Of a stretch of 64,000 bases of DNA, positions 1,686-62,142 are shown one piece after another. Position 1 is the first letter of the stretch. Each line of letters opens with the position of its first letter. The notes under the pieces were generated by a model, which worked only from the letters and a program-made list of their open reading frames with translations, had not been told where the DNA came from and ran no database searches. Source of the DNA: an uncultured Acidobacteriota bacterium. Lineage in GTDB: Bacteria; Acidobacteriota; Thermoanaerobaculia; Gp7-AA8. The stretch lies in NCBI GenBank assembly GCA_963821585.1, contig CAWGEI010000005.1, positions 1,094,603-1,158,602 on the forward strand, in the 5' to 3' direction. The translations under genes were made by a program, and so were the position numbers.

Positions 1686-4419
<2,734 letters not shown>

Positions 4420-4421
4420 GG

Positions 4422-4462
4422 TCTCTGTGCCTCTGTGGACTCACCACAGAGGCACAGAGGAC
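4422..4462. repeat. CTCTGTG-family hairpin directly after the secA stop (terminator-like)
   Basis: GTCTCTGTGCCTCTGTGGA ctca CCACAGAGGCACAGAGGAC. Confidence 0.75.
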
Positions 4463-4682
4463 ACAGAGGAGGACGGAGACTTTTTTTCTAGGAATGCGGT
4501 GGCGCGGGCGGCCGGGCGGGTGGAGCCACCGCTCTGGTACGGAGGCGGCCCCCGTCCCGCTCTTGCCATAACCCGGGATTGTGGTGCCGGCGCCCTCGCC
4601 GGCCGTAACGCCGGCGCCTCGCCGGCCGGGAAGGCGACGCCGAGCCGCAACCAAGATTCTTGCAAACGAAGCCTCTGTGGTC

Positions 4683-4738
4683 TCTGTGGTGAACGGTCTC
4701 TTCATCGTGGCAGGAACGCAGGAGGACCGTTCACCACA
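4683..4738. repeat. CTCTGTGGTGAA-family partial element with 15-bp inverted arms
   Basis: CTGTGGTGAACGGTC (4683-4697) pairs with GACCGTTCACCACAG (4724-4738) and is preceded by CCTCTGTGGTCTCTGTGG. Confidence 0.65.
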
Positions 4739-4784
4739 GGCCCCATGGACGGCAGCCGGCCACCGGTAACGAAGTGGTGCAGAC

Positions 4785-4896
4785 GAGCCAACGTAGGGCG
4801 TGGCTTCAGCCCGCCTCTCGGGCGGGGTGGGGACTTTACGAACCTGCCATGCTCACAGCGGGGAGGCGGGCTGAAGCCACGCCCTACATTGGCTCG
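4785..4896. repeat. ~110-bp palindromic element, GTAGGGCGTGGCTTCAGCCCGCC family (copy 1 of 2)
   Basis: GAGCCAACGTAGGGCGTGGCTTCAGCCCGCC ... GGCGGGCTGAAGCCACGCCCTACATTGGCTC forms 31-nt arms with 1 mismatch. The second copy is at 50288-50385. Confidence 0.85.
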
Positions 4897-5007
4897 TCGT
4901 GGATGCAAGGAGACTTTCGCAGCAGAGAACACAGAGAGCACAAAGGGTTCGCGGCGAAATCGTTGCGGCACGCGTCACTCGGGAACGCGTTATCCTCCCC
5001 ACACCCC

Positions 5008-5223
5008 ATGGACCCGAGGCAGATCATTCACTCCGATCCCGAGATCGTCAGCGGTACGCCGGTGTTCGTTGGAACCCGCGTTCCCGCCCAGGCTCTCCTC
5101 GACTACCTCGAGGGCGGGGAAACGATCGACGAATTCCTCGATGACTTCCCGACCGTATCGCGCGAACAGGTCATCGCATTTCTGGAAGAGGCCGGGCGGG
5201 CATTGCTCGCCAACATCGCGTAA
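5008..5223 (+). CDS. DUF433 domain protein (antitoxin-like small DNA-binding protein)
   Basis: MDPRQIIHSDPEIVSGTPVFVGTRVPAQALLDYLEGGETIDEFLDDFPTVSREQVIAFLEEAG is the typical DUF433 pattern. The internal ATG at 5008 was chosen because the upstream part of ORF 4774.. overlaps a palindromic repeat. Confidence 0.7.
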   Translation: MDPRQIIHSDPEIVSGTPVFVGTRVPAQALLDYLEGGETIDEFLDDFPTVSREQVIAFLEEAGRALLANIA

Positions 5224-47544: not shown

Positions 47545-47738
47545 CTGTCGCCCGCTACGCGGGCTCGTTTTTGCGTTGCCAACGAAGCCCCCGGCTGAAA
47601 GCCGGGGGCTATTTTCTTTTGCCCGCTACGCGGGCTCAGTCTCTTGCCCGCGTAGCGGGCTGCAGACAATAGCCCCCGGCTTCAGCCGGGGGACGCGCGG
47701 GGCGTCATCGTTGGAGAGCCCGCGTCAGCGGGCGACAG
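47545..47738. repeat. ~190-bp nested-palindrome (REPIN-like) element
   Basis: CTGTCGCCCGCTACGCGGGCTCGTTT ... GAGCCCGCGTCAGCGGGCGACAG. It begins 2 nt after the peptidase stop. Confidence 0.9.
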
Positions 47739-55623: not shown

Positions 55624-55736
55624 CTCTCCGTCCCCCTCTGTGCTCTCTGTGTCTCTGTGGTGAATACCCAAGTGCCTCGCGCGTGGCGCGTTCGTATTCA
55701 CCACAGAGACACAGAGATACAGAAGGGGACGGAGAG
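55624..55736. repeat. CTCTGTG...GTGGTGAAT family, complete inverted pair (43- and 42-nt arms)
   Basis: CTCTCCGTCCCCCTCTGTGCTCTCTGTGTCTCTGTGGTGAATA ... TATTCACCACAGAGACACAGAGATACAGAAGGGGACGGAGAG. Confidence 0.9.
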
Positions 55737-55791
55737 TGCGATCAAAGGATTTGCGGGGCCTGTTGTATATCCCTTCGGAGGAGCAACCTGC

Positions 55792-56352
55792 ATGGCCAAA
55801 GCCGACGACGAATTCGCCAACATGGTCCGCAATCTCGAGGAGAAGACCGGCAAGACTCTGGAGCAATGGATTGGCGTCGCGAAGAAGAGCGGTGCGCAGA
55901 AGCACGGCGAGATCGTAAAGAACCTCAAGGAGAACGGCCTCACCCACGGCTACGCCAACCTCGTCGCGCACTCCATGCTGCAGTCCGCGTCCGTCCACGC
56001 CGACGCCGGCGACCTGATCGAAGAGCAGTACTCCGGCGCCAAAGCCGCGCTGCGCCCGGCGTACGACAAGCTGATGAAGGAGCTCGAACAGTTCGGCGGC
56101 GACGTCGAAGTCGCGCCGAAAAAGGGCTACGTCAGCCTGCGCCGCAAGAAACAGTTCGGCCTCATCCAGCCCAGCACCGCCACCCGGCTGGACGTCGGCG
56201 TCAACCTCAAAGGCACGCCCGCCGCGGGGAGGTTGGAGGCATCAGGGAGCTTCAACGCGATGGTAAGCCATCGCGTGCGGGTGGCGTCGGCGGACGAGGT
56301 GGATAGGGAGTTGGTCGGCTGGCTGAAGCAGGCCTACGACGCGGCGGGGTAG
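55792..56352 (+). CDS. DUF4287/DUF5655-like protein
   Basis: FANMVRNLEEKTGKTLEQWIGVAKKSG...HGEIVKNLKENGLTHGYANLV, then a second domain KKGYVSLRRKKQFGLIQPS. GGAGGAG precedes the ATG. Confidence 0.6.
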   Translation: MAKADDEFANMVRNLEEKTGKTLEQWIGVAKKSGAQKHGEIVKNLKENGLTHGYANLVAHSMLQSASVHADAGDLIEEQYSGAKAALRPAYDKLMKELEQFGGDVEVAPKKGYVSLRRKKQFGLIQPSTATRLDVGVNLKGTPAAGRLEASGSFNAMVSHRVRVASADEVDRELVGWLKQAYDAAG

Positions 56353-56359
56353 GTGCTCT

Positions 56360-56548
56360 CTGTCGCCCGCTGACGCGGGCTCGTTTCGTGCCCGCGCGTT
56401 GTCCCCGGCTGAAGCCGGGGTCTATTCTCTATCGCCCGCTACGCGGGCGGGAGAACGGGCCCGCGTAGCGGGCCAAAGGAAATAGCCCACGGCTTCAGCC
56501 GTGGGAAGACGGTGTGGGAGCAAACCAGCCCGCGTCAGCGGGCGACAG
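56360..56548. repeat. ~190-bp nested-palindrome (REPIN-like) element
   Basis: CTGTCGCCCGCTGACGCGGGCTCGTTT ... CAGCCCGCGTCAGCGGGCGACAG. Confidence 0.9.
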
Positions 56549-56650
56549 CCCATCGCGCGATCACGGTTAACGGGTCAGTTCCGCGGACGAGGTGGGCAAG
56601 GAGTTGGTCGGCTGGTACGATCAACAGATGGAGAATGACACCACCGGAAT

Positions 56651-57589
56651 GTGTGGATGTCCTCCAGCGGAATGGTCAAGAGGGTCGTGCACATCGATCG
56701 GAGTGCGGTCGCAAAAGACGGCCGCGTGACCGCGTTCGTGGTGATCGGCGATGGGCGAGGGCGTGTGGGCTTCGGATCAGGGAAGGCCAGAGCGAGTTCG
56801 GCAGCGATCAGGCACGCCTTTGAAGTCGCGAAGAAAAACACCATCGTGGTCGCGCTGTGCGGAGGCACGATCCCTTTTGCGGCCGTGGGCTATCACGGCG
56901 CAGGGAAAGTCCTCTTGAAACCCGCTTTCGACGGAGCGGGAATCATGGGAGCGGGCGCGATCAAGGTGATCATGGAGTCGGTCGGCATCCGGAACATCCT
57001 GACGAAGTCTGTCGGTTCGGAGAATCCGGGGACCGTCCTCAACGCCACGTTCGAGGCGTTGAAGAACCTGTCGGCCGATGTCGCCGCGGTGTTTCCTGAC
57101 GAAATTCCGAGCGCCGTTTCGAGCAGTGAGCAGATACGGCGGATGATCGCAGCGATGGTTGCACCGACTCCGATTCCGCTGCCGCAGCATGTCCTGCAGG
57201 CGCGGCGGAATGCGGTTGCCCGGGACACGATGTTGCGCGAGTTCGGCGCCCTTACCGGTGCCGACATCGCAGAGTTTGCCGGTTCGAAGTCGCGGAACCG
57301 CACCGCGCTCGCGCAACGCTGGAAAAGCGACGGTCGGATCTTCTGTGTCTTGTATCAGGGCCTGAGCTACTTCCCCGGGTTTCAATTTTCGAAGGAGTGT
57401 CAGCCTCTCCCGGTGATTGCCGATGTTGTGAAAATTCTAGGAGAAGTACTTTCGCCATGGGAGCTCGCGATCTGGTTCTGCAAGAACAACGGTGCGTTGG
57501 GCGGAGCGCGTGCCGTCGACCTGCTGACGAGTGCGCCGCTGCGCGTCATCGATGCAGCGAAGGAGGAGGCCGAGGAGCTCGTATTCTGA
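56651..57589 (+). CDS. ribosomal protein S5-like domain fused to an Xre-HTH / DUF2384-like (antitoxin-type) C-terminal module
   Basis: Residues ~8-140 align with bacterial S5 over both S5 domains ([86 protein letters not shown]). The C-terminal ~150 aa carry ...FPGFQF... and [18 protein letters not shown], resembling Xre/MbcA/ParS-type antitoxins. Confidence 0.7.
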   Translation: [312 protein letters not shown]

Positions 57590-57795
57590 GCAGAGCCGTA
57601 TGACCGTTCCTCAGACGACAGGCCTGCCGAAGGCTTGGCCAACCAGCGCTGTCGGCCGTGCCGACCCGTCCCATTTTCGGACACTCCCATCCCAACCACG
57701 CACGAGAACCGTGTGAACGAACGGTCTAACTCCTTGCGAACAAACGCCCACCACCGTGGCACCTCCGTTGCGCTAGAGGCGCGGCAATCGTTGCC

Positions 57796-59049
57796 ATGGA
57801 CGTCCATAGACCTGACCTCGCAAACGCCCGCCGCCGCAAGCGGCTGATCGTCGCCGGTGTCCTCACCGCCGCCGTTGCCGTCGCCACCTTTGGCGTCTCG
57901 CGCCTCAAGCCCGCCGCGCCTGAAGTCGAGGGCGGCGGGTTGTTCATCGACACCGTCAAGCGCGGCTCGTTCGTCCGCCAGGTGCGCGGCACAGGCGTGC
58001 TCGTGCCCGAGCTGGTCCGCTGGATCCCGGCGTCGACCGAGGCGCGCGTCGAGCGCATCCTCGTCCGGCCGGGCACCGTCGTGACCGCCGACACCGTCAT
58101 CCTCGAGCTGAGCAACCCCGAGGTCGAGCAGGCGGCGCGCGACGTGGAACTGCAGCTCGGGTCCGCGGTCGCGGAGCTGCGCCGGAGAGAGATCGAGCTC
58201 CAGAGCGCGATCCTCAGCCAGCAGGCCCTCGCGGCCGACATCGAGGCCCAGCGCACCGACGCGGAGTCACAGGCCGCCGTCGACGACGAGCTCGCGCGCA
58301 ACGGCCTGACATCCGAGCTGACGCGCAAGCGCTCCCGCAACCGCGCGGACCAGCTGCAGAACCGCAGCACCATCGAGAAGCAGCGCCTCGAGATCGCGCG
58401 TAAGGTCTCCGAAGCCGACATGCTCATGCAGCGCTCGCGCGTCGATCAGCTCCGCGCGCTGCACGACCTCAGACAACAGCAGCGGGGCGCACTGCAGGTC
58501 CGCGCCGGCATCGACGGCGTCCTCCAGCAACTCCCCATCGAAGTCGGCCAGCGCGTCGCGGGCGGCACCAACCTCGCGCGCGTGGCGCAGCCGATGCCGC
58601 TGAAGGCCGAGCTGCGCATCGCCGAGACCCAGGCGCGCGACGTCGCGCCCGGACAGCCCGTGACGATCGACACCCGCAACGGCACCGTCACCGGACGCGT
58701 CACCCGCGTCGACCCCGCCGTGCAGAACGGCACCATCGGCGTCGACGTCGGCTTCGAGGGCGCGCTCCCGCGCGGCGCGCGCCCGGACCTCACCGTCGAC
58801 GGCGTGATCGAGCTCGAGCGCCTCGACAACGTCCTCTACACCGGCCGCCCCGTGCAGGGCAGCGACGGCGCGACGATCGGTCTGTTCAGGATCACCGCCA
58901 CCGGCGACGAAGCCGCGCAGACCAGCGTCGCCATCGGCCGCACCTCAGTTAGCAGCGTCGAGATCCGCTCCGGCCTGAAGGAAGGGGATCGCGTGATCCT
59001 CTCCGACATGTCCGCGTGGAGCGAGCACAAGCGCATCCGCCTCAAATAG
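57796..59049 (+). CDS. HlyD-family periplasmic adaptor (MacA-like)
   Basis: N-terminal TM helix, barrel-sandwich/lipoyl halves flanking a long coiled-coil (EQAARDVELQLGSAVAELRRREIELQ...), upstream of the ABC genes. Confidence 0.8.
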   Translation: MDVHRPDLANARRRKRLIVAGVLTAAVAVATFGVSRLKPAAPEVEGGGLFIDTVKRGSFVRQVRGTGVLVPELVRWIPASTEARVERILVRPGTVVTADTVILELSNPEVEQAARDVELQLGSAVAELRRREIELQSAILSQQALAADIEAQRTDAESQAAVDDELARNGLTSELTRKRSRNRADQLQNRSTIEKQRLEIARKVSEADMLMQRSRVDQLRALHDLRQQQRGALQVRAGIDGVLQQLPIEVGQRVAGGTNLARVAQPMPLKAELRIAETQARDVAPGQPVTIDTRNGTVTGRVTRVDPAVQNGTIGVDVGFEGALPRGARPDLTVDGVIELERLDNVLYTGRPVQGSDGATIGLFRITATGDEAAQTSVAIGRTSVSSVEIRSGLKEGDRVILSDMSAWSEHKRIRLK

Positions 59050-59802: not shown

Positions 59803-62142
59803 ATGAACGAGCTCCGGCACGCCGTCCGCCGCCTGCTGCGCGCGCGCGGCTTCACGATCGCCGCGGTCGCGACGCTGGCCCTCGGCATCGGCGCCACGAC
59901 GGCCATCGTGACGCTGGCGAACGCGCTGTTTCTCCGCCCGCTGCCGTATCGCGACGCCGACCAACTCGTCCACCTCTGGGAGATCCGCGCGTCGAAGAAC
60001 TACGGGCGCTCCGAGACCTCCTTCCCGAGCTTCGAGGACTGGCGCGCGTCGAGCCGCACGGTCGAGATGTTCGCCGGCTACGGCTGGCCGCGCGTGACGC
60101 TGCGGGGCAGCGGCGGCGCGGAACAGCTCCAGGCCGCGCGGGTCAGCGACACTTTCTTCGACGTCCTCGGCACCCGCGCGCAGCTCGGACGCACGTTCGT
60201 CCGCGGTGAAGACGTCTCGAACGGCCCGCGCGTGGCCATCCTCAGTGACGGACTGTGGCGCCGCCGTTTCGGCTCGGACACCAGGATCGTCGGCCGCGCC
60301 ATCAACGTCGACGGCACCGCGTACGAGGTGATCGGCGTCCTCCCGCCGGCGTTCCACTTCGCGCCGTCCCGCGGCGCCGAGCTCTGGGTGCCCCTGCAGC
60401 CGAACGACTCGATGCGCACCCGCCGCTCGATGCGCTGGGTGAACGTGATCGCCAGGCTGAAGCCGGGAGTCACGCCGGAAGCCGCGGACCGCGAGCTCGA
60501 CGCGATCGCCGCGGGTCTCGCCCGCAGTCATCCCGACTCGAACGCGGGCGCCAGTGTCGAGGTCGTGCCTCTGCGCGAACAACTCGTCGGACCGGTGCGC
60601 GGCCCGGTCATCCTCCTCGCGATCGCCGCGCTGTTCGTGCTGCTGATCGCGTGCGTGAACGTCGCCAGTCTGATGATCGGCCGCGTCGCGGCCCGCCGCC
60701 ACGACGTCGCCGTCCGCTTCGCCCTCGGCGCCACGCGCGCGAGCGTGGCCCGCTCGCTCGTGGTCGAGGCCCTCGTGCTCTCCGCCGTGGGGGCGGCGGC
60801 CGGTGCGGCCGTCGGCGTCTCGGCGCTGCGCGCGATGGTGATGACCGTCCCGCCCGACCTGCTCGCGCTGATGCCGTACCTGCGGACGCTCACGGTCGAC
60901 GCGCGCGTGCTCGCCGTCGTCTGTCTGGCGGTTGCGGCGTGCGCGGTGCTGATCGGCGTCTGGCCTGCGCTCCGCGCCTCGCGCGAATGGCACCTCGGCA
61001 CACGCGGCACCACCACGAAGCGCACGCTTCGCTCGGCGCTCGTGGTCGCGGAGATCGCGCTCGCCCTCGTGCTCCTCACCGGCGCGGCCCTGACGCTGCG
61101 CAGCCTCTCCGCGCTCGCCGCCGTCGATCCGGGCTATCGCGCCGAGAACGTCCTGACGCTGCGCGTGGCGTTCCCGGCCGACCGCTACGACGACGACGCG
61201 AAGCTCATCGGCATCCACCACCGCGTGCTCGACGCCATTCCCGGCGCCGCGATGATCGACAAGCTCCCGTCCCTCGGCGGCGGCACGATCTCGTTCACCA
61301 CGGCCGCCGATCCGGAAAAGCGCGAGGCGAACGTCCGCGCCATCAGCCCGCGATACTTCGCGGTGATGAGCGTTCCCCTGCTGCGTGGACGCGACTTCGA
61401 CACGCGCGACCGCCTCGACTCCCCGCCGGTCGCCATCGTCAACCGCGAGCTCGCGCGCCGCTATCTCGGCACCGAGGATCCGGTGGGGCGCGTGCTGCGG
61501 ATCGGGAGCTATGAGCTGCAGGTCGTCGGCGTGTCCGGCGACGAGCGCATCGGACCGCTCGACGAGCCCGTGACGCCCGTCGTCTACGTCGCGCTGACCC
61601 AGGCCGCGGATGATTCCGTCGCGATCGTCGTGCAGAACGCGGATGCGGCCGGCGTCGTCCGCACGCTCCAGCAACTCGACCGCGACATCGCGGTCGCGGG
61701 CGTCGCACCGATGACCGCGATCGTCGCCTCGTCGCCGGCCATCTTCCTCCGCCGCGCGACCAGCATCGTCATCGCCGCGTTCGCGGTTGCATCACTGCTC
61801 CTCGCCCTGGTCGGCCTCTACGCTGTGATCACCGAGGCCGTGACCGCGCGCACGCGCGAGATCGCGGTGCGTGTGAGCGTCGGCGCGAAGCCGGGCGAGA
61901 TCATCGCGCTCATCGCCCGCGACGGCGCACGCCTCGGCGTCATCGGCGTCGCCATCGGAATCGCCGGCGGTCTGCTGCTGACGCGTTCCATGGAGTCGCT
62001 GCTCTTCGGCGTCGGCGTCTATGACCCCGTCGCCTTCGGCGGAACGTCCGCCCTGCTCCTCGTGACCGCGATCGCCGCGTCGCTGATCCCCGCGTTGCGC
62101 GCGACCCGCATCGATCCCGCCGTTGCCCTGCGACAGGAGTGA
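59803..62142 (+). CDS. duplicated FtsX-domain permease (ADOP-type)
   Basis: N-terminus [35 protein letters not shown] and two MacB_PCD+FtsX halves in ~780 aa, the pattern of the acidobacterial duplicated orphan permease family as I recall it. Confidence 0.85.

Follow-up and report, generated by a model that had tools for sequence, protein, structure and literature searches.

The closest described relatives of the gene reported here are the antitoxins of the RES–Xre toxin–antitoxin (TA) systems, which include Xre-RES of Pseudomonas putida, MbcTA of Mycobacterium tuberculosis, ParST, NatRT of Pseudomonas aeruginosa and VPA0769/0770 of Vibrio parahaemolyticus. Depletion of NAD+ by the RES toxin is described for MbcT (PMC6436930) and NatT (PMC11535050). 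The 64-kb stretch of DNA analysed here (the window) contains, on the + strand at 56651..57589, an open reading frame (ORF) of 312 codons with a GTG start, in which a homolog of the bacterial ribosomal protein uS5 (S5) is fused to a C-terminal module that we assign to a distant branch of these antitoxins (Table 1). The reading that we favour, at a probability of about 0.78, is that the gene encodes the orphan antitoxin of a RES-type TA cassette from which the toxin gene has been deleted, with a diverged S5 domain in an accessory slot. The RES-type TA system as such is already known; what is unusual is the architecture of the antitoxin. The 312-aa ORF had been reported in an earlier note made from the DNA letters alone and is indeed present. 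A public protein of 310 aa, started at the ATG at 56657 and carried on a 1.97-Mb NCBI contig, is 100% identical to it (P0001), and an independently assembled 2.2-kb Logan contig (L001) holds the identical fusion protein together with the identical downstream junction.

As in the described RES–Xre systems, the antitoxin gene lies upstream of, or overlaps, a RES gene in the relatives of the window gene. We place the module on a distant branch of the RES antitoxins, an assignment for which this operon partner gives strong support and sequence and fold moderate support. A RES gene (PF08808, 214–215 aa) stands downstream in every S3, L10 and other S5 fusion examined. It overlaps the stop codon of the module by 11 nt in both S3 fusions, in one L10 fusion and in the S5 fusions on contigs L004, L005 and L007, and starts 47 nt past the stop in a further S5 fusion (L006). 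The contigs L006 and L007 end inside this gene, and its identity as RES there comes from similarity to other RES proteins. Among the named genomes, a full-length RES gene is found at 49 of 56 loci, with a projected start between −12 and +160 nt from the module stop and mostly overlapping or abutting it. The neighbourhoods of homologs do, for the most part, hold a toxin gene, and the expectation that a module of this type normally partners a RES toxin is borne out both by these loci and by the four other S5 fusions.

The window itself departs from this arrangement. A tblastn search with six RES sequences gave a best E-value of 0.03 and located no RES gene anywhere in the 64 kb, so that the lack of an adjacent toxin gene, remarked on earlier, extends to the whole window. 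In L004 the order of genes is S5 fusion, RES and a 417-aa HlyD-type gene, the last being 96.9% identical to window 57796-59049, and L005 and L006 carry orthologs (92–93%) of the genes upstream of the window fusion; the locus is therefore syntenic. Homology resumes 4 nt past the L004 RES stop: window 57665-57800 aligns with L004 1697-1832 at 89.7% identity (blastn, E 2e-43), the L004 RES gene ends at 1693, and the interval in question measures 75 nt in the window against 637 nt in L004. The comparison shows a clean deletion of the RES toxin gene from the window, and the syntenic relatives, with S5 fusion, RES and then the same efflux gene, point to deletion as the cause of its absence. The identical junction in the independent contig L001 speaks against an assembly artefact. 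A global MAFFT alignment had been read as an internal deletion that left 5′ and 3′ remnants of RES; this was dropped, local blastn having found no significant remnant.

With RES deleted and the 5′ end of the fusion gene rearranged (see below), the window copy is an orphan antitoxin. Loss of the toxin beside an intact antitoxin recurs. A second orphan is found on L009, which lacks RES and where an intact short antitoxin (3836-4453) is followed by an unrelated 326-aa gene; the RES gene is frameshifted on L062, truncated on L016 and reduced to a short fragment on L039, and there is no RES within 960 nt on L059. The window copy resembles known orphan antitoxins and anti-addiction modules, and the L009 copy, in being an intact antitoxin ORF without a toxin, and differs from them in its extra S5 domain; by analogy with them the window protein might conceivably neutralise a toxin in trans. 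On contig L058, from a Chloroflexi metagenome-assembled genome (MAG), the module and a RES homolog stand in one frame with no stop between them (3842-5104, an open frame of 421 codons), which is either a natural antitoxin–toxin fusion or a sequencing error.

Below the operon level, the relationship of the module to known antitoxins is distant. Looking across the family, 26 of 150 representatives match PF09722 (Xre_MbcA_ParS_C) at E<=1e-3, the best at 5.4e-6, and three of 150 match the PF23125 middle domain, matches that show distant relatedness rather than clean membership; one member matches Pfam Rv2175c_C. The window module keeps 36 of the 41 family-conserved positions, and no NCBIfam model exists for it. 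In the AlphaFold2 (AF2) model the module has a predicted local distance difference test score (pLDDT) of 79.5 when modelled alone, and scores mostly of 89–98 inside the full-length model. The best match to this fold in the PDB by Foldseek is Rv2175c of M. tuberculosis (2kfs; template-modelling (TM) score 0.60/0.62, E 6.7e-4, root-mean-square deviation 2.9 Å over 121 columns), a winged helix-turn-helix (HTH) DNA-binding protein. At the level of sequence profiles the similarity to Rv2175c is not significant (E 0.7–0.8) and Rv2175c is not known to belong to a RES operon. The DNA-binding part is accordingly modelled, and predicted, as a winged HTH of the Rv2175c type. The Xre-type (cro/C1) HTH that the earlier note had put forward is not borne out by this prediction, and the window protein gives no Xre HTH Pfam match. 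The predicted winged HTH is one of the features that set this module apart from the described RES–Xre antitoxins; the others are its distant position, the sub-threshold Pfam score of the window protein (below), the lack of an NCBIfam model, an N-terminal slot filled with unrelated cellular proteins (here uS5) and, in the window, the deletion of RES.

That the N-terminal half is homologous to uS5 is beyond doubt. Both of its Pfam domains score above their cut-offs (Table 1), S5 chains of many ribosome structures in the PDB are found by phmmer at E-values down to 1.4e-33 (~3.5e-29 for E. coli S5), and Foldseek pairs the AF2 model with the S5 of numerous ribosome structures at a probability of 1.00. 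The full-length model has a predicted TM-score (pTM) of 0.48, with the second S5 domain and the arrangement of the domains at low confidence. Homology across both S5 domains, originally aligned by eye, is thus secured by profile and by comparison with ribosomal S5 in three dimensions. The deletion noticed in the double-stranded-RNA-binding-domain-like N-domain is also real, although its size is four residues (1+3) and not about five; it falls in the rRNA-contacting hairpin RVTKVVKGGKNFSF, just upstream of 56711..56851.

The fused domain resembles canonical uS5 (RpsE) in its two Pfam domains, its fold and the motifs MIDKVVHINR and KATFEALK, which are common to the fusions and to the nearest canonical group (65 sequences, mean identity 92.6%), to which the fused domains are 57–66% identical. 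A canonical relative (P0058, on L067) sits in a standard spc operon, L14-L24-L5-S14-S8-L6-L18-S5-L30-L15-SecY, and we infer that the fused domain is probably a duplicate of an rpsE of this nearest canonical type. Unlike canonical uS5, the fusion lies outside the spc operon, scores 122.5 bits against the cut-off of 164.05 of the NCBIfam equivalog model for bacterial rpsE (TIGR01021), lacks the basic N-terminal tail, the C-terminal tail and the four hairpin residues, has a lower charge and a lower GC content at third codon positions (GC3), and carries an antitoxin. The net charge of the S5 part is +8 in the window protein, +6 to +8 in four fusions and +11 in the fusion P0005, against about +13 in canonical S5. 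These features indicate that the ORF is not the rpsE of the cell and that its fused S5 is probably not a working ribosomal protein. That the fusion is the only rpsE of its genome is unlikely, because the closest canonical S5 type occurs in a standard spc operon. The window holds no second copy of S5 or of the module.

Divergence of the S5 copy does not, by itself, imply that RNA binding has gone. Canonical S5 has 144 positions with a conservation of 90% or more, of which the window protein keeps 77 and the fusions between 77 and 92; conserved basic core positions are kept at 14 of 18 in four of the five fusions and at 12 of 18 in P0005. A preferential loss of conserved basic residues of the RNA-contact type was not seen in the S5 copy (Fisher p 0.19–0.80), so a loss of RNA binding cannot be claimed. 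All five fusions have retained two complete S5 domains over a synonymous divergence (dS) of ~1.

In the toxin-bearing relatives L004, L006 and L007 the ratio of nonsynonymous to synonymous change (dN/dS, or omega) is 0.07–0.09 for the S5 part and 0.10–0.17 for the module, these and all other omegas given here being rough Nei–Gojobori estimates made at dS ~1, near saturation. On this evidence the S5 part is not a decaying passenger in L004, L006 and L007, and the three closely related loci show it as a selectively maintained accessory. The linker between the two halves behaves differently, with 27–52% amino acid identity when the window or L005 is compared with the other fusions, and a dN/dS of 0.66–0.85 when the window is compared with the remaining four. 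The window and L004 differ by a dS of ~0.9–1.3 in the fusion gene and of 0.18 in the adjacent efflux adaptor gene (57796-59049), and between L004 and L007 the antitoxins are 90% identical but the RES N-termini only 62%. The alleles at the TA locus therefore seem to be old, exchanged or recombined, in a backbone that is otherwise closely related.

The S5 fusion belongs to a much larger family. An exhaustive HMMER scan with the module returned 2,191 cluster representatives at a threshold of E<=1e-3, of which 937 reach E<=1e-10, and in the best 150 hits the module is almost always at, or a few residues from, the C-terminus, behind an extension of 10–250 aa. Its members in named genomes come mainly from Thermoanaerobaculia, other Acidobacteriota and Holophagales, and from Actinomycetota, for example Solirubrobacterales. 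The last ~150 aa were found by homology search in proteins with differing N-termini, including S3 (PF07650 and PF00189), L10, sigma-24, phasin and BON. The recognisable N-terminal domains comprise phasin, the commonest, sigma-70 regions 2 and 4, GerE, HU, S5, S3, L10, HSP20 (a complete domain, 80.7 bits), BON, PRC, TPR and other HTHs; many N-termini have no match at all, and ten that were negative in Pfam were negative in an NCBIfam scan as well. Short members of 172–181 aa lack a large N-domain, which shows that such a domain is optional for antitoxin function as such. In the module tree the S5 fusions form a single clade, as do the S3 fusions and the L10 fusions. The S3 piece has kept nearly its full length and is conserved at 69% across its two fusions. 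In the L10 clade the L10 piece (38–61% identity) decays faster than the module (73–79%). Three proteins (P0033, P0036 and P0037) have modules that are ~88% identical and N-termini that are unrelated (BON or ECF-sigma region 2, with sigma pieces only 24.6% identical), so that N-terminal replacement must be both recent and recurrent; they indicate a very recent replacement, at a junction immediately in front of the conserved helix. Seen against this background, the S5 fusion is one of the fillings that a swappable N-terminal slot takes across a family of more than 2,000 clusters, and not a one-off. The earlier note knew of no described S5–antitoxin fusion, and the searchable literature, in a library that is incomplete and so leaves novelty unproven, likewise yielded no antitoxin–ribosomal protein fusion and no variable-slot family of this kind.

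Under the favoured reading, the ORF would encode the antitoxin of a RES-type (type II) TA cassette that sits on the chromosome at a conserved locus; the lineage is probably one of Acidobacteriota, as judged from the ADOP permease in the window (see below) and from the distribution of the family. Its C-terminal ~150 aa would form a winged HTH and an MbcA-like helical domain, co-transcribed with an overlapping RES gene in relatives. By analogy with Xre-RES, MbcTA and ParST, the module would bind and neutralise RES and probably repress the operon, and the N-terminal 140 aa would be a diverged duplicate of canonical bacterial uS5 placed in the variable accessory slot. This S5 domain may serve as a sensor that binds RNA or ribosomes conditionally, or that determines stability, and so couples the availability of antitoxin to the state of the translation machinery; a sensor is what we consider most likely, with a tether or a decoy as further candidate roles. 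In the window, deletion of RES and rearrangement of the 5′ end would have left an orphan antitoxin without a cis-encoded toxin to control, which may be kept for a toxin-independent role, as a repressor or for protection against related incoming RES toxins, or may be in early decay.

What triggers chromosomal type II TA systems is a long-standing question, for which this family offers a natural experiment, with one conserved antitoxin and RES core joined to interchangeable N-domains from identifiable cell components, of which at least the S5 copy is kept by selection. If it is true that the N-domain sets the condition for toxin release, then the identity of the N-domain predicts the trigger. 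The family of more than 2,000 clusters, mainly from Acidobacteriota and Actinomycetota, is unnamed in NCBIfam and barely detected by Pfam, and its members are now annotated as 'hypothetical' or, wrongly, as 'ribosomal protein S5/S3'. Such mislabelling can bias the ribosomal-protein markers on which MAG phylogeny and estimates of MAG completeness are based. The window copy itself matters less, as a toxin-less survivor that documents the disarmament of a cassette. Three fusions (P0002, P0027 and P0029) bear the JGI name 'small subunit ribosomal protein S5' or 'S3'.

Several observations weigh against an orphan RES antitoxin with a maintained S5 accessory. On the side of the module, PF09722 is not matched significantly by the window protein on its own (E 0.2/0.077, 12.1–13.4 bits against a cut-off of 24.5), so that the antitoxin-like character claimed for the C-terminal half fails for this protein alone and becomes convincing only through its relatives. 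The fold matches to known antitoxins, MbcA (6fkg_C; probability 0.84, E 0.17, TM 0.36/0.47) and VPA0769 (8gug; probability 0.28), are weak, and searches of the PDB with narrow and broad family sequence profiles reached no solved antitoxin. On the side of expression, the window gene has its ancestral start out of frame and a replaced upstream region; a scan for sigma-70-like promoters, which was not tuned to this phylum, found none. On the side of S5, the omega of the S5 part is 0.24–0.35 on the window branch against ~0.10 for L004 and L006, with a 95% interval for the excess of nonsynonymous change that lies above zero, and this relaxed constraint fits incipient decay. Constraint on S5 is not uniform among toxin-bearing loci either, since L005 has an intact RES gene and yet a fast-evolving S5 part, and with dS near saturation the omegas are rough.

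The window gene may, by these same signs, be a dying relic without current function since the loss of its toxin, which we regard as possible but on the unlikely side. The deletion of RES, the out-of-frame ancestral start with its upstream region given over to a REP-like insert and a duplication, the surplus of nonsynonymous substitutions in its S5 part and the lowest GC3 of the neighbourhood are all as such a relic would have them. They must be set against an ORF of 310 codons that is intact, with alternative in-frame starts, despite a dS of ~1 to its relatives, against a module that retains nearly all its family-conserved residues, and against a sequence that is identical in an independent assembly. 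Window-branch omegas are also well below 1 in most estimates; that of the module, 0.14–0.26, does not differ significantly from the 0.09–0.14 found for L004 and L006. Taken together, the pattern on the window branch fits a partial relaxation after toxin loss, as judged from these substitution rates, and not neutral decay.

Alternatively, the S5 domain could be a neutral passenger. The cassette would then recombine into, or behind, duplicated pieces of genes and gain a start codon or expression signals, S5 being tolerated as a leader. The donors are highly expressed genes, many N-termini are fragments (the first ~60 aa of L10, or sigma region 2 only) or unrecognisable, and the faster decay of the L10 piece, the short forms and the exchange of N-termini between modules that are 88% identical all suit a slot whose filling is of little consequence. 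However, the S5 part of L004, L006 and L007 is held as tightly as the module or more so, both of its domains are complete in five members, and S3 has remained near full-length in its fusions. Moreover, rpsE and rpsC are internal genes of their operon (as seen on L067) and would have brought no promoter along. We consider it unlikely that the S5 domain is of this kind.

A more elaborate proposal, which we rate as rather improbable, holds that N-terminal domains copied from hub proteins of the host (uS5, uS3, uL10, sigma, HU, small heat-shock protein, phasin) act as integrated baits, guarded as decoys or sensors. A phage effector, a protease, stress or a failure of assembly would hit the bait and inactivate the antitoxin, freeing the NAD+-depleting RES toxin and leading to abortive infection, for which NAD+ depletion is an established output. 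The identity of the bait would in that case name the trigger of each TA system, and the window copy would be the disarmed relic of an S5-bait system. Host-protein copies or sensors built into an immune or toxin-control protein are found in the integrated decoys of plant nucleotide-binding leucine-rich-repeat (NLR) receptors and in CapRel sensor–antitoxin designs, an analogy only, without homology; if the proposal is true, the integrated bait is a bacterial counterpart of the plant NLR decoys. The captured domains copy central and abundant cell components and not random proteins, S5 is under strong purifying selection with most of its basic core residues kept, and the divergence of the TA locus (dS ~0.9–1.3 against 0.18 in the flank) together with the swapping of N-termini are patterns typical of conflict loci. 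Partial pieces such as the first ~60 aa of L10 or sigma region 2 alone would not, however, mimic a full target, the S5 copy has diverged to 57–66% identity and lacks the hairpin residues and tails, and most N-termini match nothing. The PADLOC-DB protein models gave 0 matching families for the window protein, the scan with the module found it on no viral contig, and defence or mobile-element genes were not noted among the annotated neighbours, of which no systematic examination was made.

That the protein is a specialised, stress-specific uS5 paralog which enters the 30S subunit and acts on the ribosome through its C-terminal extension is highly improbable. Both S5 domains and their fold are conserved, four of the five fusions keep most of the conserved basic core residues, and S5 and S3 are both proteins of the mRNA entry channel. 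Nevertheless, the score falls far short of the rpsE equivalog cut-off, the tails and four hairpin residues are lost, the charge is +6 to +8 (+11 in P0005) against +13, only 77–92 of the 144 canonical conserved positions are kept, and in relatives the gene is always in an operon with RES, while the module is also fused to proteins that are not ribosomal. Least probable of all is a fused toxin target, in which the RES toxin of this clade would modify uS5 and the fused S5 would aid inhibition as a competitive pseudo-substrate: ParT, a RES toxin, is a protein ADP-ribosyltransferase and S5 is conserved alongside RES, but the RES proteins of closely related modules (~50–56% identical to the L004 RES) are paired with differing N-domains or none, so that the target would have to change at each swap, and the characterised RES toxins act, to our knowledge, on NAD+ or Prs and not on ribosomal proteins.

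Table 1. Coordinates of the fusion gene, its domains and the adjoining features in the window.
Feature	Position	Strand	Details
uS5-antitoxin fusion ORF	56657..57589	+	310 aa from ATG 56657; longest version from GTG 56651 (312 aa); further in-frame ATG at 56672
uS5 N-terminal (dsRBD-like) domain	56711..56851	+	residues 21-67; PF00333, 43.9 bits against cut-off 27.1
uS5 C-terminal domain	56891..57073	+	residues 81-141; PF03719, 69.2 bits against cut-off 21.5
Poorly conserved linker in place of the canonical S5 C-terminal tail	57074..57142	+	low pLDDT
Conserved RES-antitoxin module	57143..57586	+	~148 aa; long helix, predicted winged HTH ~57257-57376 and predicted helical MbcA/DUF2384-type C-domain ~57410-57583
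Scar in place of the 645-nt RES toxin gene of relatives	57590..57664	.	75 nt; not significantly similar to RES
Conserved intergenic stretch in front of the efflux adaptor gene	57665..57795	.	right-hand boundary of the deletion
Rearranged 5′ region	56571..56650	+	56571-56615 repeats the 3′ end of the preceding gene (231 aa); ATG 56628, which corresponds to the start codon of the relatives, has been put out of frame by a net +17 nt
Nested palindromic REP-like element	56360..56548	.	between the upstream gene and its duplicated tail; absent from that intergenic region in L004-L007

The region in front of the fusion gene has been rearranged. The REPIN-like repeat and gene remnant described there in the earlier note correspond to a nested palindromic element resembling repetitive extragenic palindromes (REP) and to a duplicate of the tail of the preceding gene. 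The outer arms of the element (56360-56405 and 56503-56548) are 78% complementary and its inner arms (56403-56448 and 56459-56504) 85%. Its 19-nt core GCCCGCGTCAGCGGGCGAC recurs at 47718 (47718-47736), and the three matches found against 0.27 expected make it a member of a dispersed repeat family. The gene remnant, 56571-56615, is a 45-nt direct repeat of 56278-56322 at 82% identity (tblastn E 1.5e-6), and the two copies flank the REP-like insert. It looks as though this duplication is tied to an insertion or rearrangement that also removed the original 5′ region of the fusion gene. With the ATG at 56628 out of frame, translation must start at 56651, 56657 or 56672.

The surrounding genes encode sugar-nucleotide enzymes, a 231-aa protein and an HlyD/ABC/ADOP efflux operon; none of them belongs to a ribosomal operon, in agreement with the earlier description, which also rightly saw more A/T-ending codons in the fusion gene than in its neighbours (GC3 of 0.743, the lowest of the neighbourhood, against 0.83–0.94). 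The TA cassette of L004 likewise has a GC3 below that of its flanks. The upstream 231-aa protein (window 55657-56352) has no NCBIfam match, is 93% conserved in L006 and is absent at the syntenic position in L005. Downstream, behind a MacB-like ATPase and the HlyD-type adaptor, 59803-62142 encodes a duplicated permease of the ADOP family (758 bits, above the cut-off), a family typical of Acidobacteriota.

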